Virus record (IMG/VR): IMGVR_UViG_3300020037_004820
Source of the DNA: a virus
Taxonomy: Duplodnaviria; Caudoviricetes
Reading direction: 5' to 3' (one strand)
Length of the DNA stretch: 64,000 nt
Shown here: positions 7,789 to 51,477 of the stretch, one piece after another
How positions within the stretch are numbered: the first letter of the stretch is position 1
How the letters are laid out: each line of letters opens with the position of its first letter
Translations under genes and position numbers: made by a program
Notes under the pieces: generated by a model
What the model saw: the letters and a program-made list of their open reading frames with translations, nothing else
What the model was told of the DNA's origin: nothing
The model's database searches: none

Positions 7789-7790
7789 TA

Positions 7791-13352: not shown

Positions 13353-13437
13353 CTTTGCATTAACTCGTGATTATCTAAGAGCATACTGGACCAATCAATA
13401 TCATCCTGATTTGGAAAAAACTTGCATATGGATCTAA
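13348..13437 (+). pseudogene. Orphaned original 3' end of the GT-D-like gene
   Basis: Translates to FDFALTRDYLRAYWTNQYHPDLEKTCIWI*, 20/29 identical to FGFPLNRDYLRAYWSEKDHPDLHKTCIFI* encoded at 12349-12438. Confidence 0.9.
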
Positions 13438-26257: not shown

Positions 26258-26260
26258 ACA

Positions 26261-29668: not shown

Positions 29669-29669
29669 T

Positions 29670-31433
29670 ATGTCTTCAAAAATAATTAATTATACGAATA
29701 GAGATTATGATTCTTTAAAGAAATTTTTGATCGACTATGCAAGACAGTTCTATCCCGATACTGTTCAAGATTTTTCTGAAGCTTCTCCAGGCGCAATGCT
29801 TATAGATATGATGGCATTGATCGGAGATATGTTAGCCTTTTATACAGATTTTCAAGGTAACGAATCTATTTTAGATACAGCCAAACAATTAGAAAATATT
29901 CTGCGCTTAGCAAAAGAAAAAGGGTTCAAAGATACTGGAAAACCTTCTGCTCAAGGTGAAGTAGATATTTATATATTAATCCCAGCAAATTCTTCCGGCG
30001 AACCTGATCAAGCGTATATCCCACTTCTTAAAAAAGACTCATCCTTTTCAGTGAGTACCACAGGTGCATCTTATTTACTAACTCAAGATGTGGATTTTAC
30101 TAAACCAGATGTAAAAAAAGTAGTAGGACGCGTAAATTCAGATGGTATACCTACTTTTTTTGCTTTCAAAGCATCTGGACAAGTTATATCAGGAGCTAGA
30201 TTTTTTCAAAAAGTTGCGGTCGAAACTTTTAAAAATTATTTTAAAGCAAAACTTAATAATCCTTTATTATCAGAGGTATTATCCGTAACTGATTCTAATG
30301 GAAATGAGTATTATCAAGTAGATTATCTAACACAAAATGTTGTATACAAATATATTAAAAATACAGGATATAATAGTGATACTGTCCCCTATGTTTTAGC
30401 AAAAATATATGCCCCAAGACGTTTTGTTGTTGAATATCATGATGGTTTTTATTATTTAGTATTCGGAAATGGTTCCGCAGACAGTGTAACCGATCCTAGA
30501 AATCTAGTTTTAAATTTCTCATCCAGAAATTACATCTCAGATAGAGCTATTGATCCTAAAAACATTATAGAAAGTGATAAGTTTGGAGTTGGTCCAAGTG
30601 ATACGACTCTTACAGTAGTATACAGAGCTAATGATTCTAGAAAGATAGGTGCAGCTCAGCGTCAATTAAATAAAGCCATTAGTCCTATATTTGATTTCTC
30701 AGTAGATGCAGTTGACCAAACTAAAAAGAATGCAGTTGTATCTTCTATCGAAGTTGAGAATGTAAAACCTATTTCAAGTATTTCACAAGTATTAGATGCA
30801 GAAGATATAAAATATAGAGCATACGGTGCATATGCCGCACAAGATCGAGCAGTTAGTAAAGATGATTATATAACATTATGCTATGCAATGGACCCTAAAT
30901 TGGGAGCAATAAAAAGAGCAAATATTTATCAAGATACAAATTCTTTTAAAAGAAATTTAAATTTATGTGTAATTGGGCAAGATGATAATTTATATTTAAC
31001 ACAATGTCCTATAGAATTAAAGACTAATCTAAAAACATGGTTATTGCAGAAAAAAATGATCAATGATACTTTAGATATTATAGATGCAAAAATTATCAAT
31101 TTAGGTGTAGAATGGGTTGTAGATACAAGTGAATCAAATAAACATGTTGTTTATCAAAAATGTATAAGTAAATTATTCGAGTTATTTAATGAAAAACAAG
31201 ATATTGGGGAGTCTTTTTCTATTAGCAAAATATATAAGACATTAAATAACATACCTGAAGTTATAGATACAAAGAAAGTCAAAATTACTTTAAAAAATGG
31301 TACAGGATATGCCTCAAGCGGATTTGATATATATGCAAATCTAAGTAAAGATGGAGATTATATAATTTGTCCAAAAGATCATATATTTGAAGTTAAATAT
31401 ATGGAAAAAGATATAGTGGGGACTGTAATATGA
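29670..31433 (+). CDS. Baseplate wedge subunit, gp6-like (baseplate J family)
   Basis: INYTNRDYDSLK..L..Y, DFSEASPGAMLID, YYLVFGNG and AQDRAVSKDDY motifs. Confidence 0.9.
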   Translation: MSSKIINYTNRDYDSLKKFLIDYARQFYPDTVQDFSEASPGAMLIDMMALIGDMLAFYTDFQGNESILDTAKQLENILRLAKEKGFKDTGKPSAQGEVDIYILIPANSSGEPDQAYIPLLKKDSSFSVSTTGASYLLTQDVDFTKPDVKKVVGRVNSDGIPTFFAFKASGQVISGARFFQKVAVETFKNYFKAKLNNPLLSEVLSVTDSNGNEYYQVDYLTQNVVYKYIKNTGYNSDTVPYVLAKIYAPRRFVVEYHDGFYYLVFGNGSADSVTDPRNLVLNFSSRNYISDRAIDPKNIIESDKFGVGPSDTTLTVVYRANDSRKIGAAQRQLNKAISPIFDFSVDAVDQTKKNAVVSSIEVENVKPISSISQVLDAEDIKYRAYGAYAAQDRAVSKDDYITLCYAMDPKLGAIKRANIYQDTNSFKRNLNLCVIGQDDNLYLTQCPIELKTNLKTWLLQKKMINDTLDIIDAKIINLGVEWVVDTSESNKHVVYQKCISKLFELFNEKQDIGESFSISKIYKTLNNIPEVIDTKKVKITLKNGTGYASSGFDIYANLSKDGDYIICPKDHIFEVKYMEKDIVGTVI

Positions 31434-32845
31434 TAAAAAGAACGTATGCTACAGCAGATACTCAAATAACTAATGGTAAAAGAGATAATCTTTTATTCTC
31501 AGGAAATTTGTCGAATATGGGTAGAGCTGATACAGGTGAATTATTTTCCATATTCAATTCTAATGGTATAAGCACACAATCTTTTCAAAATGATCAATCT
31601 AGATTATTATTTAAGTTTGATATAGATTCTATATTAAATGATTCTGAAATTCTAACATCTTCTGCGGCATATTATTTACGTTTATATAACGTAGCACATG
31701 ATTGTACTTTACCCAGAAATTATACACTAGTTGTACATCCTTTGACTAAATCATGGGAAGAAGGAGACGGATTAGATATTGATAATTATATGGATACAGG
31801 TTCCGCCAATTGGATTTCAGCTTCATCTGGAGTTAGATGGGAAAATACTGGATCAGATTTTAACACATCTTATGCATATTCCCAAACATTTGTTAGTGGA
31901 TTTGAAGACTTAGAAATTGATATTACATCTTTAGTTTCTGTATGGAAATCAGGTACATTGCTTAATAATGGATTAATTGTTAAATTCACTTCTTCTCAAG
32001 AATATACATCACAAAGCTATTATAAAAAATCATTTTCTATGAGAGGTACTCAATATTGGTACAGTCGTCCTTGTATCGAAGTAAGATGGCAAGATGCCCA
32101 ATTTGACGACAGAAACAATTCCTACATAAGTGCAGCATATGCTCCGGGTTCCGACAACTTGAACACCCTCTATTTGTACAATAAGGTAAGAGGGCAGCTT
32201 GTTGACATTCCAAGCGTTGGACAAGGAAACATTTATGTCTCATTGTTTACTGGAAATGTAGCAACTCAAAGTGCATATAATTCAAATGCTACCGGAACTT
32301 GGGTATCGACGGGTATATATAGAGCACAATTTTATTCTACATTTACAGGTACATTATATGATTTTTGGCATAATAACAGTCCTGTACAAATACCAACCAC
32401 TGTTTTCTTCTCGTCTTCTATTAAAATGAAAAATTTCTTAGAAGATTACCATACAAATAATGATGAATTTATTTTATCTATGCCAAATATTCGGGACTTT
32501 TATCATATGAATGATAAAGTTAGATTAGATTTATCTATAAGAAAACGTGCATGGAAAGCTAATATTTATACAACAATGACACAAGAACAAACAAGAGAAT
32601 ATATCAAAAAAGCGTATTACCAAATAAGAAGAAGTTTAGATTCAAAAATAGTCATAGATTATGGAACTGGATCTACATATCATACCTTGTTATCATATGA
32701 TAAAGATGGAAATTATTTCAATTTGAATATGAACTTGTTTGAACCAGATTATCAATACGAAATATCTTATATTTTCGATATTGAAGGTAAAAAAACTCTT
32801 CAAAAAGATAAATTCAAGTTTAGAGTTCAAAGAGAAATTGTTTGA
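31430..32845 (+). CDS. Baseplate-associated protein with a DNRLRE-like beta-sandwich
   Basis: ADTQI, SRLLFKFD, LRLYN, HPLTKSWEEG, IDITSLV..W, NNGLIVK, FSM...RPCIEV pattern. Confidence 0.65.
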   Translation: MIKRTYATADTQITNGKRDNLLFSGNLSNMGRADTGELFSIFNSNGISTQSFQNDQSRLLFKFDIDSILNDSEILTSSAAYYLRLYNVAHDCTLPRNYTLVVHPLTKSWEEGDGLDIDNYMDTGSANWISASSGVRWENTGSDFNTSYAYSQTFVSGFEDLEIDITSLVSVWKSGTLLNNGLIVKFTSSQEYTSQSYYKKSFSMRGTQYWYSRPCIEVRWQDAQFDDRNNSYISAAYAPGSDNLNTLYLYNKVRGQLVDIPSVGQGNIYVSLFTGNVATQSAYNSNATGTWVSTGIYRAQFYSTFTGTLYDFWHNNSPVQIPTTVFFSSSIKMKNFLEDYHTNNDEFILSMPNIRDFYHMNDKVRLDLSIRKRAWKANIYTTMTQEQTREYIKKAYYQIRRSLDSKIVIDYGTGSTYHTLLSYDKDGNYFNLNMNLFEPDYQYEISYIFDIEGKKTLQKDKFKFRVQREIV

Positions 32846-32855
32846 GGGTAAATAA

Positions 32856-35800
32856 GTGAGCATAAAAGAACTATTCGATTCTGAACAAAAAGTTGGAACA
32901 GTGATTTCTAAAAAATCATTATCTGATCTTACATCTTCGTATTTAATACAAAGTCCAGGTGTATTATCTGCTTCATATACAAAATATGATCAATTACTTC
33001 CTCATATAGATTTTTCAAGACCAGAGAATTTTGTAAAATACGGGTCGGCTGAAAAGTATTATTCTGCTTCTATTTCTAGAATTGTATATACTTTTCCGTA
33101 TGATGGGTCTAAAAGAGAGAAGCTTAATTGGAGAAATAGCTCTTCTTATTTAGATAATTATCTTTTTGATGAAGAATACCCAAAACATACAGGATCTATA
33201 ACTATAGGAACAAGTTTTGGAACAGCGTCTGTTAATAGCAGCGGGTATTATACTACGCCAGGAAGACTGGAGTATATTAAAGTAGGACCAGGGTTATCTT
33301 ATGGATCTATATATTCGTCCTCAGACAGAAACTCAGCTTTATCGTTTAATAGTGAAAATGGATTTTGTATTGAATTTTGGATGAAACAAGATCCTTGGAG
33401 TGCAGATATAGCAACTGCATCATATCAATGTATTTTTGACATTGGTGCCCGAGTAGCCGATATTACTTCTTCTTTAGCCTTTGCTAATCCTGCAAGCGGG
33501 TATAGAATTTCTGTTGTTGCAACAGGTACAACTTTAGCATTATTATCAGATGATGGAAATGCCGATTCAACTTTGAATTTTTACAATGCGTTTTCAGCAT
33601 CACAATGGAATCAATTTGCATTAAATGTATTTTCAGGTGGCTCTGTAGATATATGGAAAAATGGTATTAAACAAATTTCATCATCTTCTCTTGATTACGG
33701 AACTTTTTGTGAATGGCCCTATATTCCTGTCGATTTAAGGTTTAGTGGAACTATTGGAGCTTTTTCTAGTATTCCAGGCACATGGTTGGATGGAAATGTA
33801 CAATTAGGATGGAATAAATTTTCAGGTTCTATTGATGATTTTAGATTTTGGAGACGTTCAAGAACAGATAAGGAACTTGCATCAAATTGGTTCCACAGTG
33901 TTGATGGAGGATATGAAACTGATACTGAATTAAATCCAGATATGGGATTTTACTATAAATTCAACGAATATACAACAGGAACAGGTTCGATAGATGCAAC
34001 AGTATTAGATTACTCTGGTAGAAAAAATAACGGTCAATGGATTGGATATTTATCTGGTGCTAGAAGTTCAATAGGAGCAATGTCTAGCGAAGTTAAAGAT
34101 CCTATTCAATTTATCACGTCAGATATAGTTTCAAGTTTTATACAACAAAAATTATCTACAGGAAGCTATTACGATATCCATAATAATGGAGCTATCATAA
34201 ACAATCTACCTTCTTTTATATTAGAAGAAGACTCTAACAATCATTATGTAAATCTAACACAAATTATAGCTTCAATGTTTGATAGATTTTTTCTTCAAAT
34301 ACAGTCTTTAACTTCTCTAAAAGATTCTTCTTATTTTGCTTCTGGATCATTATCATCTGATATAATGCTTAAACTTATAAATTCTAATGGATTACGTTTA
34401 GACAATATTCTAAGTGATTACGATTTACAAGAAATTTTGCAACAAAAAGCCGATACATTTTTGTATGAAAATGATATTGAAAGAATTAAAGAAGTAATTT
34501 ACAAAAACATTTACAATAATTTGGTTTATATATTCAAAGCAAAAGGTACTGAAAAAGCTATTAAGGCTGTTTTTAGATCATTCGGTGTAGATGATGATGT
34601 ATTAAAAATTAAAGGATATGCTAAAGAAGGTGTTATAGAGATAGATGGATCTAAGAGAAAAGATACTGTTCGTAGAAAAAACTTTTTAGATTTATACGGA
34701 TATACTGATCCTAATAATATGAATGGTGTTGTGACTAATGCATATATACCTATTCAAAGTGCTTCATATGCATATTTAACCACTTCGTTAAGTTCTGTAG
34801 AAAAAGTAACAGATTCTTCTAATAAATCTTTAGAATGTTCTATTCTTTTTCCTAAAAAATTAGGATTATCTGATCCTAATCACGTATTTTTAAATCAAAA
34901 TCAATTATCTGCATCTCTATTTGGATTTTACGAGGTAGACCAATCTTTATCTCCTTCTTCTACCGATTTTACATGGCAAACAGGTGGCTATAAATTAAAT
35001 GTATATTCTGTGCAAAAAGATAGATATACTAAAGATGCTAAATTTGTATTTGTAATTTCGGGGTCTACTTTTTCTCAAATATACACTGAAACAATGTTTT
35101 ATCCAGATATCTATGATAATTCAAAATGGACATTTGCTTTTAGAACCTATCATAGTGCATCTAAAGATACTGGACTTATAAATACAGAAATAATTGCTTC
35201 TTCTCATATTAATACGGCAAGTATAGAGTTATATGGTGTTCAAGAAGAAGCTGGAGTTATTATACATTCATTTTCTTTTAGAACGGACATAGCGTATAAT
35301 GGAGTATCAGGAACTGCTACTAATAACCAATATTTATTAGGACAAAAAACTAAACTATATGTAGGAGCAAATAGAACAAACTTTACTGGAACAGTTCTCT
35401 ATCCAACTTATGCAAAATTTATAAATCTAAGATATTGGGATAACATCTTATCAGATGAAGATATTTTAAATCATGCTAAAGATGTTCATAATTTTGGTAT
35501 ACATAGTTCTTCTAGAAATTGGAAAAACTATATAAATTCTATTTGGGATAATCAACCTAGAGAATTTATTCCTAATGCAGAGACTCTATTAGTTAATTGG
35601 GATTTTGAAAACAATTATATACCGGATTCTAATGGGATATTTACTGTTTCCTCATTTAGTTCCGCATCTCAATATACAGCTAATAATATTCAAAGTAATC
35701 AGGAACTTAGAGTTGTAGGCAAGAATTATAGCGCAATAGGCTATGGATTCAATTCAGGTGCTATAGTAATTGATAAAAATTATGCAATAGAACAAAAGAA

Positions 35801-36311
35801 TAGAATTCCTACGGACTATTACGGCTACGATGATATATCATTATTAGATGATTCCGATAAGTATTTTGGAAGGTCTATAAGACCAATTGAATATTTCTAT
35901 ACTATTGAAAATTCTATATATGATGTTATATCTGAAGATATTTTAAATTTCTTTTCATCTATAGACGAGTTTAGCAATTTATATGGATATGCGATTGAAA
36001 GATATAGAACAGAGTATAAATTACTTAGACTTTTTAGAAATATCTTTTTCTCTAAAGTTGGAAATACATCTATAGATATAGATAAATATATTTCATATTA
36101 TAAATGGTTAGATGATGCGATTTCTTCAATAGTTTCTAAATTGTTGCCTGTATCAGCAAATGCAGATGCTAATATAAGAAATGTAATAGAATCTCACGTT
36201 TTGGAAAGAAATAAATATTTATGGAATGCTGAAATTGTAAGACAAAAGCTGATGCATGTAATAGAAGGTTCTGTTAAACCTATTCATTCAAAATTTAATG
36301 TAAACGGCTAA
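32856..36311 (+). CDS. Large baseplate wedge protein with LamG-like domains
   Basis: FCIEFWMK and FSGSIDDFRFWRR LamG motifs. IFKAKGTEKAIKAVFRSFG resembles gp7/P2-gpI-type wedge proteins. GTG start. Confidence 0.7.
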   Translation: MSIKELFDSEQKVGTVISKKSLSDLTSSYLIQSPGVLSASYTKYDQLLPHIDFSRPENFVKYGSAEKYYSASISRIVYTFPYDGSKREKLNWRNSSSYLDNYLFDEEYPKHTGSITIGTSFGTASVNSSGYYTTPGRLEYIKVGPGLSYGSIYSSSDRNSALSFNSENGFCIEFWMKQDPWSADIATASYQCIFDIGARVADITSSLAFANPASGYRISVVATGTTLALLSDDGNADSTLNFYNAFSASQWNQFALNVFSGGSVDIWKNGIKQISSSSLDYGTFCEWPYIPVDLRFSGTIGAFSSIPGTWLDGNVQLGWNKFSGSIDDFRFWRRSRTDKELASNWFHSVDGGYETDTELNPDMGFYYKFNEYTTGTGSIDATVLDYSGRKNNGQWIGYLSGARSSIGAMSSEVKDPIQFITSDIVSSFIQQKLSTGSYYDIHNNGAIINNLPSFILEEDSNNHYVNLTQIIASMFDRFFLQIQSLTSLKDSSYFASGSLSSDIMLKLINSNGLRLDNILSDYDLQEILQQKADTFLYENDIERIKEVIYKNIYNNLVYIFKAKGTEKAIKAVFRSFGVDDDVLKIKGYAKEGVIEIDGSKRKDTVRRKNFLDLYGYTDPNNMNGVVTNAYIPIQSASYAYLTTSLSSVEKVTDSSNKSLECSILFPKKLGLSDPNHVFLNQNQLSASLFGFYEVDQSLSPSSTDFTWQTGGYKLNVYSVQKDRYTKDAKFVFVISGSTFSQIYTETMFYPDIYDNSKWTFAFRTYHSASKDTGLINTEIIASSHINTASIELYGVQEEAGVIIHSFSFRTDIAYNGVSGTATNNQYLLGQKTKLYVGANRTNFTGTVLYPTYAKFINLRYWDNILSDEDILNHAKDVHNFGIHSSSRNWKNYINSIWDNQPREFIPNAETLLVNWDFENNYIPDSNGIFTVSSFSSASQYTANNIQSNQELRVVGKNYSAIGYGFNSGAIVIDKNYAIEQKNRIPTDYYGYDDISLLDDSDKYFGRSIRPIEYFYTIENSIYDVISEDILNFFSSIDEFSNLYGYAIERYRTEYKLLRLFRNIFFSKVGNTSIDIDKYISYYKWLDDAISSIVSKLLPVSANADANIRNVIESHVLERNKYLWNAEIVRQKLMHVIEGSVKPIHSKFNVNG

Positions 36312-36315
36312 TTAC
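36308..36315 (+). promoter_or_regulatory. Putative late promoter
   Basis: CTAATTAC overlapping the stop codon, 16 nt upstream of the ATG at 36332. Confidence 0.4.
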
Positions 36316-36331
36316 AGCAACGGAATACAAC

Positions 36332-39300
36332 ATGCCTTATACTGACCCAACTGAATCAATCTATAGAGTTTTAGGAGAATATTTACCTCATTATACAGGG
36401 AATATTTCCAATATATATAGAATTGCTAATGTTAAATTATCTGGATCGGTTTTTTATAACGACCAGAAAAATATTGTTTCCAAAAGTATAGGAAATTATC
36501 AAAATTCTTATGAAGTTGTAGAATCTACTGGACGAAGAGATAATAATTTATCTCTTCGTTTATATCCTCTATCTCAAAGCATTTCTATTATTAAACTTGA
36601 TGGGCAAGTTCCTTATACTATGCCTGCACGCCAGTTTAATAAAAACATAATTGCTGTAATCTTTAGTGCTCCAGGCGGAAGCGATGTTGATGCAAATGGG
36701 CAACGAGATCTTGAGGGACTAGAATATTCTTCAAATAATAACATAAATTTTAGAAATGCAATCGTTAGAAAAGATATTAACCAAGATTGGAGAACGCCCG
36801 AAACATCTTCGGCATATACTCGTCATAAGACAGATAAAAATACACATTATAGAATATCTCCAATTACCTTAACATTTGAAACCAAATCCGATAATGGATT
36901 TGTTACGCATTTTGTTCCTTATCATATTGATCAAATAGCTTGGCTATCTCAATCGCTTATGAAAACAGAGGTTCAGAAGAAAAGTCATTATATATATTTC
37001 AATGAACAAACGGGAAGTGAATATGTCTTTACTTCTAGTATGGTAGGAAGTGAATTATCTAATTCATTTGGATCAGATTATTGGAGCATATATGGCTATG
37101 TCCCTTGGATACAAACAAGAGCCAGTGAAAATTGGAGACATAGAGCATTAAAAAATAGATCATATTATTATGTTAATAGAAATGAAAATTCTCAAGAAGG
37201 AAAAAGAGGTGTAAGAGTTGATACAGGTTTATTTATACAATCTGGTACATTTGACTCATCCTCCGAAGGTATATTAATTTTTAAAGAACCTTTGTTGGAT
37301 TTTTCTAATCAGTTATCCTTTATAAAAGTTAAAGATAATATGAAAAAAGATATGATTATAAAGTCTCCTATATATAAATCTATATTCTTTAACGAAGAAT
37401 TGAATAATATATATGGAATAGAAGATTCTATAAAAGATAAAGATAGATTAGCTTCTTTCTTAGAAACACAATATTCTTATATAAAAGGTAAAAAATACCA
37501 AATATATCCTAATCCTAAAGTTGGAGGTTTTCTTAGAACTAGAAAACGTGAAAATTTTATATTTAAAGCATGGAAAGATGATTCATTTAGAACACAATCT
37601 CAAGTATATGGAGGGGCAACTCCAAATGCGGATAATACACGACAAGTTAGAAATTCTGCTATAAAAGGTTACACTGTTCCTAGTTTATATGATTTTAATT
37701 TAACAGGATCTATATGGCCTCTGGATCAATATATTCATCCTACAATGTTTTTGACAGGAAATAGAAGAGTTCAAGGTGAGTTAATGATGACTGTAGGACA
37801 GGATAGTATAGCTGAGCAAGTTTTAACTGTTCAAAGATCTTATATGCCAGTAGTTAGTTATAGATATACAGAAAATACAAATCCTATAAGTGTATTACCT
37901 TGGACGGCATATAGAGCGGCAAAATCGACTCCTTTTAAGGACTCAGAGGATGTATATTCTTTACATACTTCTAGAAAATATTTAAGTTATGGTGTTGTTC
38001 CTGAATTCAATGTGTCTCAGCAAATTACAAGTGGTAATTTTACCCAATTAACAAAATATCTAACTGATAATTCATTTGTATTTATGAATACAGGTTCTTA
38101 TACTGTAAATAAACTAACAGATACATATTCTGTAAAAGATACTTTGCAATTCAATATAAATGCTGTTATACAAACTAGACCTTATGATAATTTTTATCCA
38201 TGTCAATATACATTGGAATGTGCTAAACAATTTTCTGCATCTTTATCAAAAGTTAGTAGTTATAACGCTGCTTTATCAAATTATGTAGGAAGTGGATCTG
38301 CTTTATTATTTGCAATGTTTCCATTTTTTAATCCTGGAATATTATATGCATCTATTAAAGCAGGATTGCCTATGTCTTTCAATTTTAATTCAAATTTAAC
38401 ATCTGGAGACATTTGTGAATTTGAAGAAATTTTTGATCCTTCACGTTTCTTGTTAGAATATACAATCCAAAACAATCATTTTACAGAAACATTGTCTGTG
38501 GATCTATATAAAAATGCAATCCTTAATTTCATGGAAGAAGTTCGATATACATTTTGTAAAAATAATAGTTTAGAATATTTTGAATCAAATAACGATGTAG
38601 ATTTTAAAGTGTTCACATCTGGAACAAATTATATATTAGATGTGGTTTTAGATACAGGGAAATTAGATTTCAGTTCTAGTAATATTTCACAATACGGAAA
38701 AGCTATTATAGGTGGAGTAAATTATATAGGATATTCCCATAATTTATATCCTGCAAATATTCCTCCATGGTGGCCTGGGAATGAAACATCTAATGCAAGT
38801 ATAGGAACTAAAGTTGCTAGAATTTCATTCACTCCAACACTTACTAGAAAATATACTTTAGATGAAATTTTCGCATTATCTTCTGTAACTTTTCATAAGA
38901 GATTAACAGATACAATATCTGTTCCACAATCTTATACAAAGTTAACATCTTCGTTTAATTTATTCGAGAAATCAACGGATAATGATGGAAATAGTAAATG
39001 GAAGATAAAATCTAAATGGGAATTTCCATTTTTAGCTTTAACAGGTGCTATGGATCATTTTAGCAGCGCTTTAACGACTAGACCTATAGAAAATACTTGG
39101 AGTAATAACACAGTAGAATATGCCGGTGGATTATGGCATGATTTTTGTGAAGTTCCGTCTTCTGAACAAGGAATATTTTTATCTCTAAAGGATTTTAATT
39201 ATATATCAGGTAGTACTGCTCTTAAATCTGCTTCTTTGGCAAGACAAGTTGGATTTGATATAAATAAGAAAAAACGAGTTGGGGAATTGAATACACAAAA

Positions 39301-43170: not shown

Positions 43171-43613
43171 TGGCAAATAAGAATGAAACAAGAGAGCAAT
43201 TTTTAGAGAAATTATTTTTCGATATATTTCTTACATGTATAGTTTTAAAAGACTCAAAACTATTCAATTTTGAATACATAAAAACAATTACCAAAACAGA
43301 TAATTTACCTATACAAACAACTGCTCTCATAGAATCTTTTAAAAAAGATGCAGAAAAAATGAATTCGATAGAGTTGTCTAATAAATATTTTTTCATTATG
43401 TACATGAATTATCAACATTTATTTCAAATAGAATATTTTGATGATAAACTTCAAAAATGGAATTTATTAACGGAACAAGTTTTGAACACTCTCCCTGATG
43501 TTAAAGTATTATGCAGAGTAGTATCTTTTATCAATGAAGAACTAAGTATAGTAAGAAGTGAAAGTATAGATATAGAATTAGTTAATCAATATTTTATACT
43601 TAGTAACCAATAA
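43170..43613 (+). CDS. Hypothetical protein
   Basis: 147 aa, GAGG RBS, TAATG coupling. Confidence 0.6.
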   Translation: MANKNETREQFLEKLFFDIFLTCIVLKDSKLFNFEYIKTITKTDNLPIQTTALIESFKKDAEKMNSIELSNKYFFIMYMNYQHLFQIEYFDDKLQKWNLLTEQVLNTLPDVKVLCRVVSFINEELSIVRSESIDIELVNQYFILSNQ

Positions 43614-43614
43614 T

Positions 43615-46600
43615 ATGAAAATAAGAAAATACCTTTTTAGAGATCATTACAAAGTATCAACAGATAAATTTAGAGATATTCTAGGTTTATACCATGATTA
43701 TAAAAATCAAAATCTAACAGATTTATCTAATCCTATAAAAGAAATTTTTAATCATTCTATATTTTCAATATCTGATGCAGTTATTGTAGATGAAGATCAA
43801 GGTTTATACAAACAAAATGTAACTTTTAAACCAACAAATTTAGATTCAAATCAAAGATTTTTGAATCAAGAATATAGACAAAGATCAATTGAGGAATTAG
43901 ATCAAAATTTAATTCCAAGACGTGTGGATTTTCAACAAGGAGGAAATGGTTTTATATATACCACACCTGCTCCCATTGAAGGACCTGGGGAGTTAAATAC
44001 AACTACTCAAACATCTAATAATACTTCTCCAATTGAGGTAACTGTTCCTTTAGATCCCGTTATTCCTATTTCTGGTAAAACTAATAGAGAAGTTATAGTT
44101 GATACTATTAGAAGCAATAAACATTACGAAGATATAAATACTATAGTAGATGAAGTGACTGATTTAAAAATAGGAACAGATGATTCCTATGTAAATATTG
44201 AATCTAAATACAATTTTTTCATACCAAAATACGAAGAACAGATACAATCTAATTTAATTCCTGAAGAAATTTTACCGAACTTTTATGTTGTTAGTTTAGC
44301 TCTAAATCAAGATATCTTAAATTCTATATCACAAGATGATTACAATTCTTCTTTAGCGTTAGGAAACACATCTCCTTATGAAAATCTTAATAAAAAATTT
44401 GATAAATTTATCACATTAGATGGAAACCTATCATTAGATAGAAATGGGGATATCGGGTTCTTTTTTGCTCTTGCCTTAGTAGCTTATATGGAACAATACG
44501 CGGAAGTGTATGATTCAGTATCTGTAGATTATATAGAAACTGTTAAGAAAAGATTTGGACATTTATTTAATAATTTAACTAATAAAGAAATTTTAGATAA
44601 ATTGAATGAATTTAAAAGCTCATATCCTTTATATATTAATATAGAATGGACAACTACAACATTAAGTCCTTTACTTGTCTTTCTACAAAATGCAGGAATA
44701 TCTTTGCAAGCATTACAAAGTTTTCTTGGAGACAAATTGCTTATCAAAATACAATCTTCTGGTTTATCAGAAGTTTCAAGGTTTTCTATTTTAGCACAAT
44801 CTCCTAGATTAGATTTCACAACAGGTTTAGGGCATTTTGAGGAATATTCTCAGAATCTATATACATATGATGCAGGTCAATGGATTATCGACTTTTTGCT
44901 TGAGATCTTCGCAGGGACAAGCAATGAAATAATTCACCCTAATGAGTTGCTGGTTATTGACCAAAATGGGCAAGAGATTCCGATCACTGACCAGTTTGAC
45001 CCGACGAGGGGCGCTATTGATATTTACGAAATACTCAACGCAATATCTGCTATACCTGGGTATCGGGATTTACTTAATACCTCTATACGAACGTATAAGC
45101 AACTTATAGAGGGAGATTTTGCTAAGTCGGAAGTTTTGCTATACAAAATAGAAAAAAGAAATTCACAACATGTGTTACTTCAAACATTTTATATACCTAA
45201 TGTTTCTGGAATAAATGTGCAAAATTATGTAGATACTCAAGTTAAGTATAATAAAGAATATAAATACAAAATATTTGCGTATACAGCAATTTATGGTACA
45301 GAATATTATTATTCAAGATTTCAATCTGAAACAGATGATACACATTACTATAGAGCTGGTGAAGGGCATTTATCGATTGATACAAATATTAGTTTAGGAA
45401 TGTCTAACAAAAAAGTAAAGCAACCTATTAAAGAAAATTCTATAGTAGGATATTTTAGAGTTTTATCTGCGGACGAAGGGCATCAACTATTCGATATATT
45501 TATGAACACTTCTATAGCAGGTTCTGATCAATTTACATTAGGCTTTTTTGGCGATACAACTAGTTTAAACGTAGATAATTTATTAATCAATAAATGGTAT
45601 CATTTTTCTATTGTATCTAAAAAAGTAAAATCAATAGAAGGTATATCTTTTATAAGAGAATTATACATAGACGCTAGATTAGCAGGATCTGTTATTGCAG
45701 ATCCTATAGTAGAATTTAAAAATAGAATATTAATACCAGGATATGCGCCCTCTGCAACAGATCCTCTATTTGATCCCTTTGGAAGTTTTGGGAATTATTC
45801 CACAGTTACTCGTGATATGAGTAACATAGCAGTTTTCGATAGAGCACTAGAATATTCAGAAATAAAATCCTTAAAAAATCTAGGAAGATGTTGGGATATT
45901 AGAAAATCTAAAAAAGGTATACCTCCTTTGAATATAAATGATTGGACTGGAGAGGTTCCTTCATTTTATTGGCGTAAAAAAGCTATATATAATGTAGTTA
46001 CAAATGATGGATTTGCAGGCGAAGCTAACTTGGTTCTACATGGAGATGCAGTTTCTATAAAATGCGACGACAATTCTATACCAGATGATTCTAAAAAAGA
46101 AACATTTGAACCAAGAAATATAGAACCTAGAGATATAATACCTCCTTTATTCGAAGAATATCCTGTATATGGAGAAACAGATTCTTTAACTCCTGTTGAT
46201 CCTTTTATAATTGAACCACAAGAGCCATTTAAGGGATCAACAGGAGTTCCTGAATTTTTAGACATAGGTATACCATATGAACCTCCGGGTGTTCCAGGGT
46301 ATGGAGAAGTATTTATTCCTCCAGAAGAACCTCCTTTTATTCCACAAGAATCTCCTCCTGATTTTATAAAACAAGAGGTATATATTCCTACACCTACTGT
46401 TCCTACTGTTCCAATAACAGTTCCTGGTAAAAAATATATACCTGTAATATCTGTAGGAGGAGATACAACTCCTCCAGTTCAACCTGCTCAACCTTCTACT
46501 ACATCAGGGTATGCAGAAGTATTTATTGCACCAGATGCTTCTACACCAACTGTTAGAGTAGTTCCAACAGTTATTCCAAATATGCCTAGTGTTCCTGATA

Positions 46601-46836
46601 CAAGAGTGACAACTGCGCAAATAACACCTCAAACAGCACGACCTATATCAGCAGGAGGTGGAACTTCTCCTCCGCTTGTTCCACCTAAAAAGACAGTATT
46701 TACAAGAGATACACAAGTTACTCCTGTTAAAAAAGAGCAAGCGCCTATTTTACAACCTTCTCCTGTAACTATAAAAAAAGATATAATTACTCAAAAAGCG
46801 TCTACATTAATAACAACTAAAGGTACAAAAAAATGA
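43615..46836 (+). CDS. Structural protein with an Ig/FN3-like segment, a LamG-like domain and a Pro/Thr-rich tail
   Basis: YVDTQVKYNKEYKYKIFAY, NKWYHFSIV...LYID...NIAVFDRAL, then about 250 Pro-rich residues. Confidence 0.6.
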   Translation: MKIRKYLFRDHYKVSTDKFRDILGLYHDYKNQNLTDLSNPIKEIFNHSIFSISDAVIVDEDQGLYKQNVTFKPTNLDSNQRFLNQEYRQRSIEELDQNLIPRRVDFQQGGNGFIYTTPAPIEGPGELNTTTQTSNNTSPIEVTVPLDPVIPISGKTNREVIVDTIRSNKHYEDINTIVDEVTDLKIGTDDSYVNIESKYNFFIPKYEEQIQSNLIPEEILPNFYVVSLALNQDILNSISQDDYNSSLALGNTSPYENLNKKFDKFITLDGNLSLDRNGDIGFFFALALVAYMEQYAEVYDSVSVDYIETVKKRFGHLFNNLTNKEILDKLNEFKSSYPLYINIEWTTTTLSPLLVFLQNAGISLQALQSFLGDKLLIKIQSSGLSEVSRFSILAQSPRLDFTTGLGHFEEYSQNLYTYDAGQWIIDFLLEIFAGTSNEIIHPNELLVIDQNGQEIPITDQFDPTRGAIDIYEILNAISAIPGYRDLLNTSIRTYKQLIEGDFAKSEVLLYKIEKRNSQHVLLQTFYIPNVSGINVQNYVDTQVKYNKEYKYKIFAYTAIYGTEYYYSRFQSETDDTHYYRAGEGHLSIDTNISLGMSNKKVKQPIKENSIVGYFRVLSADEGHQLFDIFMNTSIAGSDQFTLGFFGDTTSLNVDNLLINKWYHFSIVSKKVKSIEGISFIRELYIDARLAGSVIADPIVEFKNRILIPGYAPSATDPLFDPFGSFGNYSTVTRDMSNIAVFDRALEYSEIKSLKNLGRCWDIRKSKKGIPPLNINDWTGEVPSFYWRKKAIYNVVTNDGFAGEANLVLHGDAVSIKCDDNSIPDDSKKETFEPRNIEPRDIIPPLFEEYPVYGETDSLTPVDPFIIEPQEPFKGSTGVPEFLDIGIPYEPPGVPGYGEVFIPPEEPPFIPQESPPDFIKQEVYIPTPTVPTVPITVPGKKYIPVISVGGDTTPPVQPAQPSTTSGYAEVFIAPDASTPTVRVVPTVIPNMPSVPDTRVTTAQITPQTARPISAGGGTSPPLVPPKKTVFTRDTQVTPVKKEQAPILQPSPVTIKKDIITQKASTLITTKGTKK

Positions 46837-47801
46837 GAGATATGACTGGCTTTGGGGGACTTGACCCTTTTACAAATGAGCAAAATTCTGAAAATCCTTC
46901 TTTGATTAATGCTCCAAAAGAGGAACAACAGGTTGGACCTATTAGCACAGGTGTGGAACCATCCACACCATTTACTCCTGAAAATATACAGAATATTTCT
47001 GATATCTTATTTTCGGATGAATTTCAATTCTCAGTATTTTTCAAACCTTTGTTAAAATTAGTGGAAGTAGATTATAGCGATTGGATATCCGCAAAAATAT
47101 TAGATTTTCCACCTACACCGCCTGTTGTACATTTTTGGCCTATAAAAGATGTATCTAATCGATACAATATAGCATTAGCTCCTTCGAGTGGAGAAATTCG
47201 TCAATCTCCTATAGCATTGCGTTTAAATGAAATAAGTTTTTTCAAAGATATATTAAATCAACAAAAAAGTACAGATGGCAAAATAACCTTTAAATATGAA
47301 GGAGAAATTGCTCAATATGAAATGTTTAGAATAGAAAATACTCCTTTAAGTTGGAAATCTTTCACACAAGATTCTACGAGTGTTAAAAAGATTTTTTCGG
47401 GATATGAAAATTTTCTATTTCAAGAATCGATTCAATCTAATAAGGACTATTATTATACCTTTAGAGCATATGATTTTCATTTGAAGTTTTCAAATCCTTC
47501 TCCAATTTATAAAGTAAGAATATACGAAAACGATGGAGTGGAGTATTTAGATGTAAAAGTATTCAATTTTCCTGAGAAGAAAAAAATAATTTCAAAAGAT
47601 TTTAGAAAGTTTATTAGAATTGATACATCTTTGGAACAAAAAACTTATAAAGAACCAAACTCCTCATTAGAAACAGAAGGAAAATTAGGCTTATACGATG
47701 AATCTTCTTATAATCGAAAATTTGTATTAAGAATTACAAGTAAGCATACAGGAAAAACATTAGATGTTGTTCTAAATTTTGTAAAAGAGGATATAATCTG
47801 A
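46833..47801 (+). CDS. Structural protein with an FN3-like segment
   Basis: ILDFPPTPP, QYEMFR and NKDYYYTFRAYD...SNPSPIY. ATGA overlap. Confidence 0.6.
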   Translation: MRDMTGFGGLDPFTNEQNSENPSLINAPKEEQQVGPISTGVEPSTPFTPENIQNISDILFSDEFQFSVFFKPLLKLVEVDYSDWISAKILDFPPTPPVVHFWPIKDVSNRYNIALAPSSGEIRQSPIALRLNEISFFKDILNQQKSTDGKITFKYEGEIAQYEMFRIENTPLSWKSFTQDSTSVKKIFSGYENFLFQESIQSNKDYYYTFRAYDFHLKFSNPSPIYKVRIYENDGVEYLDVKVFNFPEKKKIISKDFRKFIRIDTSLEQKTYKEPNSSLETEGKLGLYDESSYNRKFVLRITSKHTGKTLDVVLNFVKEDII

Positions 47802-47809
47802 ACAATAGT

Positions 47810-47817
47810 CTAATTAT
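47810..47817 (+). promoter_or_regulatory. Putative late promoter
   Basis: Intergenic CTAATTAT upstream of the AAGGAG RBS and the ATG at 47841. Confidence 0.5.
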
Positions 47818-47840
47818 TGTGATACAAAGGAGCATAACAA

Positions 47841-48737
47841 ATGGCAATTTTAGATAATAGTGGAGATATTGTATTAGATATCGTCTTAACGGATGCAGGG
47901 CGTCAGCGCCTAGCGAGAGGAGATAGAAGTTTCAGAATAGTCAAATTTGCTCTTGCAGATTCTGAGATTGATTACAGAAATTATAACTTAAATCATCCAA
48001 GTGGATCAGCATATTTTGATTTAAATATTGTAGGAACTCCTTGTTTTCAAGCATTTACAAATAATACAGCAGCTATGAAATATAAATTAGTTTCATATGC
48101 TAGAAATGATTTACTTTATTTACCTGTTATTAAAGTCAGTACGAATCTAGGACCAGGGGCAGCTACCTATAATTCTCTTGGTTATTATGTTGTCACATGT
48201 AACGAACAAACGATTCAATCGTTAGGAGTAGGAGCAGGGATTATAGATGGACAAACTGTTCAAACTGCCCAAAGAACTCCCTTAACTTTTGAACAAGGAT
48301 TAGATACGACAGAGTTATCTCCAAAAATACAGATACCTAATGATTTGAAAGAAACTCAATATTTTGTAAAAGTAGATTCTAGAATAGCTGAAATTGTTAC
48401 TCCTAGAGGAACGCCTCGTGCCGCTGAAGTATCATTTATAGATGATGATAAATTTTCGCTATATATATTCTCTATTGCAACCCCAGGGGATTTCATTAGA
48501 GATATAACTAATACAGATGGAAATTCCGCAATAGCTGGTCCGAGAGGAACAATGTTTCAATTCGGTATCAAAGCAAATATAAATCTAAATACATCGGATA
48601 ATTTGTTCACAAAAATAGGCTCTACTGTAACTATTAATGCGGTAGCATATCGATATATTGATACAAATATATTTATAGAAGGTGGTACAACTGGATTTTC
48701 AATGGATGTTCCAGTACGTTTCCTTCGTAAAATCTAA
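47841..48737 (+). CDS. Structural protein with a tail-collar-fibre-like N-terminal motif
   Basis: VLTDAGRQRLA...IVKFALAD motif, strong RBS. Confidence 0.65.
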   Translation: MAILDNSGDIVLDIVLTDAGRQRLARGDRSFRIVKFALADSEIDYRNYNLNHPSGSAYFDLNIVGTPCFQAFTNNTAAMKYKLVSYARNDLLYLPVIKVSTNLGPGAATYNSLGYYVVTCNEQTIQSLGVGAGIIDGQTVQTAQRTPLTFEQGLDTTELSPKIQIPNDLKETQYFVKVDSRIAEIVTPRGTPRAAEVSFIDDDKFSLYIFSIATPGDFIRDITNTDGNSAIAGPRGTMFQFGIKANINLNTSDNLFTKIGSTVTINAVAYRYIDTNIFIEGGTTGFSMDVPVRFLRKI

Positions 48738-48750
48738 GAGGAGTTAGCTC

Positions 48751-49803
48751 ATGCCATCAACATACAAATATATAACCGACGATAAAGTTCAAACGATACA
48801 AAATAAACTACATGAAGCTGTTCCTTTAACTGGAACAATTATATCTGGAACATTAGCAGATTCTAATGTTCGCAATTATGTACATGATAGGTTTCAAAGT
48901 GTATATGACTCTTCTGTATTAAGTTCATCTGCTAATCATATTTTTGATATTGCATTTGGATATTGCAGCGGATCAACTTTGTCGTCTTCTGCTAATTTAC
49001 TTAATAATGAAAAAGTATTAAATTATACCCAATTTGCTCAAATTTTTCAAGGATTTGACATTACTGGATCAATTCAATTATTTGATCAAGATGGTAACAT
49101 CAATGACGGCGGAACAAAGCTTAAAGAATGTGTATTTATTTTCTTCTCTAGAACTGTAGTTAAAGATGGTATAAAAAGAGGTTCGTTTAGTGCAACATTC
49201 TTTACTGGAGGAACTTGGGCAGCGCCTGCTGGAAGATTAGAAATAAACGACCAACATGCTGTTTCTTCTTATTTTGTAAATTCTCCTGTTGGAGAATGGT
49301 CTTATTTGACAGGAAATCCTGCAACTGGAGGAGGCCCGGGATCTCAAGTTGGACTTATTTTTTACGGTCCCGGATTGGTAGTTTTAACTGGGAGCATTTT
49401 CACATCTAGCTCGGGAGGTGGAACTCCAGTATTCTTTAGCTCTGCCGCAGATCCAAATAGAACTTTTAACCAAATGATGACAGCTTCTACTTTATCTTCT
49501 TCTGCAAATGGTTTGAGAAGAAAAATTGTAAATATCAATTTCGTAAATACAACAGAATTGAATTCACAAATATTTTTCTTGGATATTGGTCCAAATGAAT
49601 TCAATTACAGCTCGAATCCAACTTATTTATCCGCATCAAAAATTAGAACAAAAGATGACCCAACGGATAATTCCGTATCGTTTATAACAGAAGTAGGCTT
49701 ATATTCAGCAGATAATGAATTAATAGCTTCTGGTAAATTTTCTCAACCGTTACAAAAAACTGTAGGAAAAGCAATTTCTGTTAGAGCTAGAGTAGATTTC
49801 TAA
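48751..49803 (+). CDS. Structural protein with a tail-collar-fibre-like C-terminal motif
   Basis: FITEVGLYSADNELIASGKFSQPLQK...VRARVDF. GAGGAG RBS. Confidence 0.65.
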   Translation: MPSTYKYITDDKVQTIQNKLHEAVPLTGTIISGTLADSNVRNYVHDRFQSVYDSSVLSSSANHIFDIAFGYCSGSTLSSSANLLNNEKVLNYTQFAQIFQGFDITGSIQLFDQDGNINDGGTKLKECVFIFFSRTVVKDGIKRGSFSATFFTGGTWAAPAGRLEINDQHAVSSYFVNSPVGEWSYLTGNPATGGGPGSQVGLIFYGPGLVVLTGSIFTSSSGGGTPVFFSSAADPNRTFNQMMTASTLSSSANGLRRKIVNINFVNTTELNSQIFFLDIGPNEFNYSSNPTYLSASKIRTKDDPTDNSVSFITEVGLYSADNELIASGKFSQPLQKTVGKAISVRARVDF

Positions 49804-49819
49804 AGGAGACTCACATAAA

Positions 49820-50236
49820 ATGGCTGAAAGTAGAAAAGCAAAAAATTTGCGAATTGCTTCGTGGATACTTTTGACTGTAGTTCCTGCTATATTCGCAGTT
49901 GGATTTGATGCGAAAGGATATGTTGCAAAAGCAGAACAAAGTTTATCAGTGGTTACTATTTTAGAGCCAAAAGTATCTAAAATGGAAACGGAATTATCCC
50001 TTAATGGATTGAATGATTTGTTTACTAAAACTATTGTAGACGCAGATACAAAACGTGTAGATAGAATTATAGATGAATTGAAAACTTTAGATAAAAGTGT
50101 AACAGAACTTACCGCAGCAGTTACTGCTTCGAATGCGAATGTTGAGCAAATAATATTACGAAATAATAAATTTTGGGATGAAGATTGGAGCAAATTTACT
50201 TCTAAAATTGATAAACTAATTGACAGGAAAAAATAA
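49820..50236 (+). CDS. Single-pass membrane protein with a coiled coil
   Basis: Hydrophobic IASWILLTVVPAIFAVGF followed by heptad-rich sequence. AAGGAG RBS. Confidence 0.6.
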   Translation: MAESRKAKNLRIASWILLTVVPAIFAVGFDAKGYVAKAEQSLSVVTILEPKVSKMETELSLNGLNDLFTKTIVDADTKRVDRIIDELKTLDKSVTELTAAVTASNANVEQIILRNNKFWDEDWSKFTSKIDKLIDRKK

Positions 50237-51477
50237 TGTATTTCAAATTTAAGGATAATGATATATATAGACAAACTATTATTGCATATCCTGCGTTTAA
50301 ATTTACATATGTTAAATCCAATGAAGACAGTCAATTTAAGATTTATCTAAATGATGTTCAATCTGGATCAGGAAAAGCTCTTGCTCTAGATGCTCAAATG
50401 AAGACAGAAATAAACGTTAATACAACAGGATCTGAACTCATTTATCCTTTTATTGACAAAACATCTGGACAGTATTGGACATCAAATGTAAATTCTTCTT
50501 CTTTTAATCTTATACCTTTTGGAGCTAGTATAACTGGTACCTATATGGTTAAGCCAACATTATATTTAGATTTCATTTCTTCTACGACTAATTCTATATA
50601 TAAATCATTAGTCAATATATGGGAATCTCAAAAAACATTAAGTAGCGAATTTGAATATGAGAATTTTCCATCAGGAGCGGCTATTCATATATTTCCCAGA
50701 GAATACTATGGAACAGGCTTCAGAAAAGGTAGTGTTAAAGCAACCGTTGTTTCTTTGTATACAGATACAGGAAAAGGAGATTATTTTCCTGATTATTTAA
50801 ATACATTTATTGCTCAAGATATTTATAAAGACGGCATCTTAAGAGTTGTGGAAGATAGTTTTCCTGACAAAACAGTTTCTGATTGTAATATAGGAAGAAT
50901 TGTTGGATATGTATTATATGACTATGGACTTATTTTATTTAAATCTGCTTCTATGATTTATTATACACCATATTCTGATTCAACTGCCTCTTTAAAAACA
51001 AAAGGATTTTCTGGAAATTTTGAATGGTCGTCTGGTTCTTATGGAACTTCTGAAGAAAGAGAATATTATAATTGGAGATGGTTTGGAGATTCGCGTTTTT
51101 GTGACGAAGCAATTAATAGAACAGTCGCATCAATAGAATTTCAAGGGATAAATAAAATTCAAAACTTAACTTTGATGTGCCATTCTCCCAAAGGAAAATT
51201 GAACAACTCTACAAATCCTACATTTGTAGAATTTTCACAAAGCACTAGACTTACTCAATCTTCTGATTATTCTATGGTAGAAAATTCTAGAATTAGGATT
51301 AAAAATATAGTCTCATCTTCTTACAATGTAGAAGAAAATTTTGATAAAAGAACTATACTTTCCACTATTTTAGTTATGGATGAAAATAAAAAAGTATTAG
51401 GAATTGCTAAGGTTGCTAATCCTATAGTAAAGAAAGAAAGTTCTGATAATACTTTTAAAATTTCTTTGGATTTATAA
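50236..51477 (+). CDS. Structural protein, paralog of ORF 48751
   Basis: Shared GFRKGSV/GIKRGSF, VGYVLYDYGLI/VGLIFYGPGLV and NNSTNPTF/NYSSNPTY, plus a terminal GIAKVANPIVK...KISLDL. Confidence 0.65.
   Translation: MYFKFKDNDIYRQTIIAYPAFKFTYVKSNEDSQFKIYLNDVQSGSGKALALDAQMKTEINVNTTGSELIYPFIDKTSGQYWTSNVNSSSFNLIPFGASITGTYMVKPTLYLDFISSTTNSIYKSLVNIWESQKTLSSEFEYENFPSGAAIHIFPREYYGTGFRKGSVKATVVSLYTDTGKGDYFPDYLNTFIAQDIYKDGILRVVEDSFPDKTVSDCNIGRIVGYVLYDYGLILFKSASMIYYTPYSDSTASLKTKGFSGNFEWSSGSYGTSEEREYYNWRWFGDSRFCDEAINRTVASIEFQGINKIQNLTLMCHSPKGKLNNSTNPTFVEFSQSTRLTQSSDYSMVENSRIRIKNIVSSSYNVEENFDKRTILSTILVMDENKKVLGIAKVANPIVKKESSDNTFKISLDL

Follow-up and report, generated by a model that had tools for sequence, protein, structure and literature searches.

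Why should one short amino acid pattern recur through the outer baseplate and fibre proteins of a marine phage whose other proteins are poor in it? The question is raised by IMG/VR virus record IMGVR_UViG_3300020037_004820, a stretch of 64,000 nucleotides (hereafter the window) from an uncultured marine T4-like ('far-T4') myovirus with a G+C content of ~30% and every gene on the + strand. The pattern is the triplet [ST][GAS][ST] (hereafter the word), which the original prediction had taken for the recognition sequon of a phage-encoded enzyme that modifies exposed virion proteins. We find that the word, set between hydrophobic residues, is under selection at the protein level and characterizes the peripheral baseplate and fibre proteins in a deep clade of these phages. 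Our tentative first choice, which we place a little short of an even chance, is that it is most likely an acceptor site for phage-encoded cytoplasmic O-glycosylation of exposed tail proteins, and thus a candidate sequon. Open reading frames (ORFs) are named below by the position of their first nucleotide.

Expected counts and z-scores were obtained from 2000 composition-preserving shuffles per protein. The six ORFs named in the original prediction (31430, 32856, 36332, 39808, 48751 and 50236) together contained 82 words as compared with 28 expected (z 11.1), an excess of about threefold. The excess stayed in each of the six when tested alone, with z between 3.0 and 7.2, and persisted in the set when shuffling was confined to windows of 40, 20 or 10 residues. 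The earlier hand counts proved accurate: 13 words in 48751 (about 12 had been reported), nine in 50236 and two in the SbcCD-like ORF 54575. The scarcity reported for ORFs 26261 and 28221 was borne out too (no word in either), and ORF 40614 had two words. The list of motif-rich ORFs was correct but incomplete, as the strongest case, a repeat fibre encoded at 7761-11567, lies outside the span that had been reported (Table 1). Nearly every short segment of the regular repeat of this fibre begins with the word (repeat units NLSASYF / TLTGTG / ISGSSGTYH / NITASS / LLSSSV), and the repeats are complex units of 56-70 residues rich in hydrophobic residues. The other motif-rich proteins are not repetitive.

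Table 1. Features bearing on the word. Positions are those of the window unless a relative is named; counts of the word are observed vs expected.
Feature	Position	Strand	Counts and other evidence
Motif-rich peripheral baseplate protein, 471 aa	31430..32845	+	10 vs 3.3, z 3.8; next gene downstream of the gp6-like wedge gene; no match in Pfam or PHROG
Motif-rich large baseplate/fibre protein, 1151 aa	32856..36311	+	30 vs 9.0, z 7.2; weak Laminin_G_3 match
Motif-rich large structural protein, 1158 aa	36332..39808	+	16 vs 7.2, z 3.3
Motif-rich small structural protein, 270 aa	39808..40620	+	4 vs 0.6, z 4.4
Motif-rich conserved structural protein, 350 aa	48751..49803	+	13 vs 4.1, z 4.7; paralogue of 50236
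Motif-rich structural protein, 413 aa	50236..51477	+	9 vs 3.5, z 3.0; paralogue of 48751
Repeat fibre saturated with the word	7761..11567	+	101 vs 33, z 13; directly upstream of the sugar cluster
Second fibre-like protein	3449..6658	+	Weaker excess, 23 vs 14.9, z 2.3, mainly in the N-terminal 220 residues
Inner baseplate block, six ORFs including gp25-like 29291 and gp6-like 29670	23943..31433	+	0 vs 7.9, Poisson P 0.0004; PHROG baseplate wedge matches
GT-D-fold-like candidate glycosyltransferase	11665..12438	+	PF22882 16.9 bits (cut-off 27); NF040628 16.5 bits (cut-off 75)
GNAT acetyltransferase, short DegT-type aminotransferase (216 aa) and S-adenosylmethionine (SAM) methyltransferase	13422..15379	+	
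dTDP-glucose 4,6-dehydratase-like enzyme	18431..19381	+	PF16363 1.9e-55; TIGR01181 4.4e-83
Beta-phosphoglucomutase-like HAD domain fused to sugar-1-phosphate nucleotidyltransferase	20174..21655	+	
GT4 pair of relatives	L164:2173-4928; L109:8237-11475; L113:5497-8036; L085:4766-7365		L164 is immuto gp181/gp180

The enrichment is specific to the word. When the six ORFs were pooled and counted by middle residue, [ST]G[ST] occurred 37 times as compared with 7.8 expected, [ST]A[ST] 20 times (5.7 expected) and [ST]S[ST] 25 times (14.7 expected); the remaining middle residues were close to or under expectation, the exceptions being Q (9 vs 4.5) and, to a lesser degree, L (14 vs 9.1). The dipeptide [ST][ST] was not enriched in the same ORFs (z -0.1), nor was there an excess of the control patterns [GA][ST][ST] and [ND][GAS][ND]. 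The word had been described as usually following a hydrophobic residue, and hydrophobic residues were indeed raised at positions -2, -1 and +1 (0.52-0.56 vs 0.36), with Y, F, I and L enriched beside the word and position -1 rich in L, F or I. Codon usage at the word sites was that of the background and the 82 sites comprised 64 distinct 9-mers, which argues that selection acts on the protein and not on a DNA word.

These results make a chance or compositional artefact, whether from S/T/G-rich composition, low complexity, a DNA repeat or hidden repeat copies, hardly credible. The motif-rich proteins do have an S/T content (0.18-0.21) somewhat above that of other window proteins, and two of the six ORFs are paralogues (see below). 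Against this, an effect of composition was rejected because the excess survived the global shuffles, and local clustering of S, T and G because it survived the local ones, depended on the middle residue and was not accompanied by an excess in the three control patterns. A DNA-level word was rejected on the diversity of codons and 9-mers; moreover, the motif families share no module apart from one pair, and the excess was replicated in hundreds of homologues and in two isolates. We conclude that the triplet excess is real, specific and at the level of the protein.

The word is restricted to the periphery of the structural module. It was absent from the inner baseplate block, and the portal and terminase proteins resembled these inner-baseplate neighbours in having no excess. 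Where the word does occur, the sites are internal and spread through the baseplate and fibre proteins, not placed at the C-termini of capsid or tail-tube subunits. Over the other window ORFs the word was depleted (24 vs 40.8, z -2.7). This does not amount to avoidance throughout the proteome, an idea that was rejected because the enzymes of the sugar cluster described below carried 8 words vs 6.8 expected, and because depletion of the inner baseplate was milder in relatives.

The proteins bearing the word had been said to have different folds, so that a shared structural repeat would not explain it. This premise is only partly right, because ORFs 48751 and 50236 are distant paralogues (hhalign 99.4%, E 9e-22, 209 columns). 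The C-terminal consensus sequences of their families are near-identical, and one word site occupies the same homologous column in both. BLAST, a hidden Markov model (HMM) of the 7761 repeat unit and profile-profile comparison by hhalign revealed no relation among the families beyond this pair, and hidden copies of the 7761 repeat or another shared module were rejected on these grounds. The rest of the premise stands: at least five families that are mutually unrelated by profile-profile comparison carry the word, in addition to the fibre. The 48751 and 50236 families are very large in marine phages and have no Pfam model and no solved relative.

The T4-type module of the window comprises a T4-type portal (Portal_T4, 1.3e-57), a large terminase of 562 aa (Terminase_6N), a gp25-like wedge protein (ORF 29291; phrog_261/43 in PHROG) and a gp6-like wedge protein (ORF 29670; phrog_219). 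Comparison of the window with cultured phages by blastn gave no nucleotide match. By portal identity, the closest isolates were Microcystis phage Mel-JY01 (40%) and Flavobacterium phage immuto (33%). Homologues of four of the motif families, taken from at least 15 metagenomic relatives and these two cultured phages, held the excess at 2.5-3x. There were 208 words vs 80.6 expected in 15 homologues of 31430, 536 vs 207.7 in 13 of 32856, and 47 vs 19.1 in those of 36332. Among 112 representatives of the 50236 family (27-53% identity) the count was 1173 vs 374, a ratio that stayed flat with divergence, and the 48751 family, with >4700 hits, had a mean of 11.7 sites vs 4.4 expected. The gp6-like protein showed no excess in 15 relatives (25 vs 37.9). 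Some homologues of ORF 32856 are as long as 2300-2835 aa (L095/L096:13284 onward; L097:12302 onward) and keep the 2.5-3x excess, for example 69 vs 22.4.

It had been anticipated that sites would turn over in position while keeping their density. Within families this failed, because the excess sits in conserved columns: in four families such columns accounted for the whole of it, and scattered sites were at or below chance. In the 48751 family four word sites were ~100% conserved and S32, G33, S58 and S215 were invariant. Between single orthologues the picture varied; 39808 kept three of its four sites in relative L081, and 36332 shared four sites with its L081 orthologue, five having been lost and seven gained.

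The conserved columns also define what is constrained. Position 1 was T in 47% and S in 39% (S+T 86%), position 2 was G in 50%, S in 27% and A in 12%, and position 3 was S in 64% and T in 20% (S+T 84%). D and N accounted for only 1-2.5% each. All 12 residue combinations of the word occurred, with weak coupling between positions. As G, A and S replace one another in the middle, small size is required and not the geometry of glycine. Judged from these alignments, the constraint is hydroxyl-small-hydroxyl and is neither a glycine turn nor a usual helix cap; an ordinary helix-cap or turn motif was weakened as an explanation by the near absence of D and N and by the G/A/S interchange.

AlphaFold2 (AF2) models of 48751 and 50236 (pLDDT, the predicted local distance difference test, 77.5 and 76.3) were both mixed alpha/beta. 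In them, 21 of 22 word sites were either in a loop or no more than two residues from the edge of a secondary-structure element. Many directly followed a strand or stood at a helix N-terminus, and sites also lay at strand-to-helix junctions. Surface exposure of the sites is compatible with these models. Comparison of the 48751 model with the PDB by Foldseek and VIA-align gave nothing clear (best Z 4.4), and the 50236 model matched only uncharacterised viral proteins, with weak Laminin_G/ConA-like signals among the structural neighbours. Searches of the PDB with profiles of the 48751, 11665 and 22911 families found no relatives.

Taken together, the columns and models bring in the chief alternative, that the word is unmodified and serves structure, through lineage-specific capping or joining of secondary structure or through inter-subunit hydrogen bonds in beta-rich proteins, the sugar genes serving the host envelope or a small molecule. 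We regard this as a serious possibility, though somewhat less than probable. It would account for the concentration of the excess in conserved columns with scattered sites at chance, the invariant residues of the 48751 family, the placement of sites at strand-to-helix junctions and helix N-termini, the site column common to the paralogues, and the regular use of the word in fibre 7761, where it opens nearly every repeat segment like a structural rung. However, gp6-12 and gp34-37 of T4 and the proteomes of cyanophages are also beta-rich, yet lack the trait, and at least five unrelated families have converged on the word while neighbouring structural proteins avoid it. D and N, which are normal at caps and turns, are almost absent, and the interchange of G, A and S speaks against a glycine turn. 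A structural role also leaves the restriction to this clade and to these proteins unexplained, and the homologues in the isolates hold the density of the word at mostly different positions.

In the two cultured phages, [ST]G[ST] was in excess at the same gene positions as in the window (23 vs 6.6 in immuto; 40 vs 6.9 in Mel-JY01), again with hydrophobic flanks, and genome-wide scans of both singled out no ORFs other than those of the baseplate, those of tail fibres or tail spikes, and those without annotation. The 48751-like and 50236-like proteins of these isolates share 17-26% identity with those of the window, yet 8-12 sites are kept. The numbers of isolate sites falling within three residues of the conserved columns of the marine families were 1 of 8, 4 of 12, 1 of 10 and 3 of 10, as compared with 1.1-1.7 by chance. 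Over deep time, therefore, the alignments indicate that the positions of the word shift while its density stays, with the caveat that alignments at 17-26% identity are uncertain. It is only at this depth that the anticipated turnover was recovered.

Selected density with shifting positions is also what would be expected if the word supplied numerous weak patches of hydroxyls next to aromatic or hydrophobic residues, making low-affinity multivalent contact with host polysaccharides at adsorption. The limitation of the trait to host-facing parts and annotated tail-fibre/tail-spike proteins, the Y, F, I and L beside the word, and the weak Laminin_G/ConA-like signals in 32856 and among the structural neighbours of 50236 fit with this. 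We nevertheless consider it improbable, since carbohydrate-binding sites normally use D/N/E/Q/R and W/Y and not S/T, the same word would be needed for hosts as unlike as Flavobacterium and Microcystis, and positional conservation within families is strong.

The trait is not a generic property of T4-like baseplates and fibres. No excess was found in T4 gp6-gp12 or gp34-gp37, and for [ST][GA][ST] all absolute z-scores were <1.7 over the 28 T4 proteins tested. Whole-genome scans of T4, P-SSM4, ACG-2014g and Rhodothermus phage RM378 gave 2-4 ORFs at p<0.01, as compared with ~1 by chance. A feature general to such proteins was rejected on the T4 proteins and on the cyanophages P-SSM4 and ACG-2014g, which lack the trait. 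T4, P-SSM4 and ACG-2014g have neither GT1/GT2 (glycosyltransferase family) matches nor the baseplate-wide trait; in RM378 there is a single GT4, along with two ORFs that are mildly enriched. Single ORFs with a strong triplet excess do occur in two of the genomes that have no GT1/GT2 matches, at 4016-4987 (-) in P-SSM4 (38 vs 6.6) and at 145965-147476 (+) in ACG-2014g (14 vs 2.2). These are probably repeat or fibre proteins, and they are a possible counter-example to a link between the motif and glycosyltransferase (GT) genes.

A candidate source of such a modification lies beside the structural genes. A nucleotide-sugar cluster occupies 11665-21655, between fibre 7761 and the baseplate module, and includes, besides the enzymes in Table 1, HAD proteins, three unannotated ORFs and a LAGLIDADG endonuclease. 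Sugar genes beside structural genes are the arrangement of phage virion O-glycosylation, here with only a sub-threshold GT in the window. The family of that GT-D-like ORF, 11665, has at least 811 members; 19 of 44 members matched PF22882 (best E 2e-6) and 3 of 44 matched PF08759. Synteny of the fibre and the cluster is retained in relative L084, and the combination of GT-D-like, GNAT and short DegT genes was found in L084 and L085. Three distant relatives have variable sugar islands at the same site, just upstream of the baseplate module, and clear GT1/GT2 genes were found in relatives. Glycosylation of DNA as the role of the sugar genes is contradicted for immuto: nucleoside liquid chromatography-mass spectrometry (LC-MS) of its DNA found only dA, dC, dT and fdPreQ1 (bioRxiv 10.1101/2023.04.13.536721), so its DNA is unglycosylated and its GTs act on something other than DNA.

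The relatives encode a second candidate, an adjacent pair of GT4 glycosyltransferases (immuto gp181/gp180), both members of which are present in Mel-JY01, G001, G002, G005 and L085. The first member was found in eight of 10 clade records, the two records without it being fragments. It is 54-61% identical among clade records, as compared with 41-48% for the portal and 42-45% for the gp6-like protein, and its family has >7300 members. The closest solved relative of this core GT4 is the chlorovirus protein B736L (3OY2; E 4.9e-15, full length), the acceptor of which is unknown. This adjacent GT-B pair may parallel GtfA/GtfB; no GtfA/GtfB chain was among the 22 solved-structure matches of the GT4. 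The pair follows a PD-(D/E)XK nuclease gene in immuto and L085, and the G001 version of its second member carries a fused GT2 domain.

The sugar pathway of the window with its weak GT-D-like candidate, together with the core GT4 pair of the relatives, makes a modifying enzyme plausible. A conserved glycosyltransferase would add a sugar to one of the two hydroxyls of the word, displayed on a loop or where a strand or helix ends. In relatives this role would fall to the core GT4 pair, in the window phage possibly to the GT-D-like ORF 11665, and the variable sugar island near the baseplate module would set which glycan is added; in the window the island would supply a dTDP-6-deoxy-amino-sugar pathway with acetyl- and methyltransferases. 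We infer the modification, the enzyme responsible and the role of the glycan alike. An acceptor sequon would explain together the hydroxyl specificity, the restriction to peripheral proteins across unrelated families, the conserved density and the co-occurrence of core GTs. A broader proposal is that O-glycosylation of the tail periphery is general and phage-encoded in marine far-T4 phages, the GT4 pair reading hydrophobic-[S/T]-[G/A/S]-[S/T]-hydrophobic in folded baseplate and fibre proteins (with >100 sites in the repeat fibre) and hypervariable islands diversifying the glycan; this may be so, but we put it at clearly less than an even chance.

Several observations weigh against glycosylation. 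The sole GT candidate of the window cluster is ORF 11665, which falls under the Pfam threshold, and the gene is absent from seven relatives (G001-G005, immuto and Mel-JY01), on which ground it was rejected as the common enzyme of the clade. The GT4 pair was not found within the 64-kb window, and matches of the GT4 include small-molecule enzymes (BshA-, TreT- and sucrose-phosphate-synthase-like). The link between motif and GT genes is phylogenetically confounded, because it compares essentially one clade with a few outgroups. Conserved columns, some with invariant S or G, are the pattern expected of fold-linked residues, and in the AF2 models loop or boundary placement was nearly as frequent for other S/T/G/A residues (Fisher p 0.14). 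As noted, the cluster enzymes do not avoid the word. Finally, the glycosylation sequon is a proposal drawn from sequence and not from chemistry.

If the word is a sequon, the modification could be of another kind, such as phosphorylation, acylation or a cross-link on Ser/Thr by a phage or host enzyme. Hydroxyl specificity and selected density are all that would favour this, and we judge it very unlikely, as the window yielded neither a kinase nor any other candidate enzyme and the conserved neighbouring genes are sugar enzymes.

Further features of the sugar cluster deserve mention. The LAGLIDADG homing-endonuclease ORF (19419-20279) lies between the dehydratase and HAD-nucleotidyltransferase genes and runs past position 20174, where the latter is called to start. 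The DegT-type aminotransferase is 'half-length' (~215 aa vs the usual ~370) at 14067-14717 in the window, L084:8545-9192, L085:11157-11804 and immuto 56735-57379; as this form is conserved in four divergent phages, beside a GNAT or acetyltransferase gene, it is perhaps a short enzyme in its own right, as opposed to the remnant of a disrupted gene. A CapR-homology/DUF4379 treble-clef zinc-finger protein is encoded at 12423-13352 and in two copies in L084 (5892-6836 and 10175-10960). Also in L084, three tandem paralogues of ~400 aa (L084:1429-5091), extremely Thr-rich, separate the repeat fibre from the GT-D-like gene; they show no [ST][GAS][ST] excess over composition and are absent from the window. 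Throughout the clade, immuto and Mel-JY01 among them, a conserved protein of ~235 aa (ORF 22911-23630 in the window) is found where the variable sugar island gives way to the baseplate module. It was rejected as an enzyme because there was no support in Pfam, PHROG, NCBIfam or the PDB; judged from its consensus, it may be a small regulatory, perhaps sigma-like, protein.

Elsewhere in the window, an SbcD-like nuclease (Metallophos) and an SbcC-like ATPase (AAA_23/SMC_N) are fused in a single ORF of 990 aa (54575-57547), a fusion retained in relative L001 (1015 aa). The terminase homologue of L001 (L001:6008-9034) has 1008 aa as compared with 562 aa in the window, for which an intein or insertion may account. 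A 233-aa ORF within the sugar cluster of L084 (L084:7847-8548) is 34% identical to part of the large terminase of the window.

We found no prior report of the triplet enrichment in the literature. If the sequon is real, no protein-glycosylation sequon would have been defined in tailed phages before it, and it would provide a sequence rule for predicting modified sites. Ocean phages of an abundant clade with hardly any cultured members would then be coating their host-recognition machinery in glycans that they make themselves and that vary between strains, and a sugar-coated adsorption apparatus could affect host recognition or escape from host defences. This would have implications for host range and adsorption, and for the question of why so many marine phages carry 'lipopolysaccharide (LPS)-like' sugar genes; the structural families count thousands of metagenomic members, as does that of the GT4. 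Even if the word is unmodified, a motif to which at least five unrelated structural families have converged, and which their neighbours avoid, is an unexplained design rule of the baseplate. Two cultured phages, immuto and Mel-JY01, carry the trait, which makes the question accessible to standard virion mass spectrometry.

Among known systems, the general O-glycosylation of Bacteroidota is periplasmic and uses the sequon D-[ST]-[AILVMT], in which Asp is needed at -1. It resembles the present proposal in having a three-residue Ser/Thr sequon, and the cultured clade member immuto infects Flavobacterium. Unlike that sequon, however, the word has a hydrophobic -1 position and G/A/S in the middle; Asp is not enriched, and Asp at -1 is not a feature of the word sites of the window. 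Furthermore, phage particles are put together in the cytoplasm, and a phage of cyanobacteria shows the trait as well.

Cytoplasmic glycosylation of many Ser/Thr residues is known from two bacterial systems. Autotransporters are hyperglycosylated on loops of a folded beta-helical passenger by the bacterial autotransporter heptosyltransferases (BAHTs) TibC and AAH, which recognize structure, so that there is no strict linear sequon (PMC4358343). BAHTs are iron-containing dodecameric enzymes that use ADP-heptose; no such enzyme or pathway was seen here, no search having been aimed at one. Serine-rich-repeat protein (SRRP) adhesins are fibre-like and O-glycosylated in S-x-S-type words, by GtfA/GtfB and then GT-D/DUF1792 (PMC5063993, PMC5207161). 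A GT-D-fold enzyme is thus encoded in the SRRP locus, as a GT-D-like candidate is in the window cluster, although in SRRP systems this enzyme elongates an existing glycan and has no part in initiation. The acceptors there are long low-complexity Ser-rich tracts that leave the cell via accessory Sec (aSec), whereas the words lie in folded proteins and in complex repeats; neither fibre 7761 nor the other motif proteins have such tracts.

Viral systems offer parallels as well. Giant viruses, with the Vp54 glycans of chloroviruses and the fibril glycans of Megavirinae, also have clade-variable nucleotide-sugar pathways and GTs, and their pathways contain a 4,6-dehydratase, an aminotransferase, and acetyl- and methyltransferases, as in the window cluster (PMC9614988, PMC4691112). 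Unlike the phages studied here, they infect eukaryotes and use atypical N-linked capsid sequons or a fibril polysaccharide. In mycobacteriophages, glycans have been reported on capsid and tail-tube subunits (Freeman et al. 2023, Cell Host Microbe, as cited in PMC12619734). There, as is proposed for the clade studied here, the glycosyltransferases and methyltransferases are phage-encoded and near structural genes, and the glycans are O-linked to virion proteins made in the cytoplasm. The mycobacteriophage glycans are reported to be at C-terminal regions of the major capsid and tail-tube proteins, whereas the candidate sites here, known from sequence alone, are internal words in T4-like baseplate and fibre proteins. 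Virion glycosylation as such is thus already known in mycobacteriophages (cited in PMC12619734) and giant viruses (PMC9614988); if the proposal is true, it would gain a further form, in which baseplate and fibre proteins of T4 type carry a short sequon within the chain.

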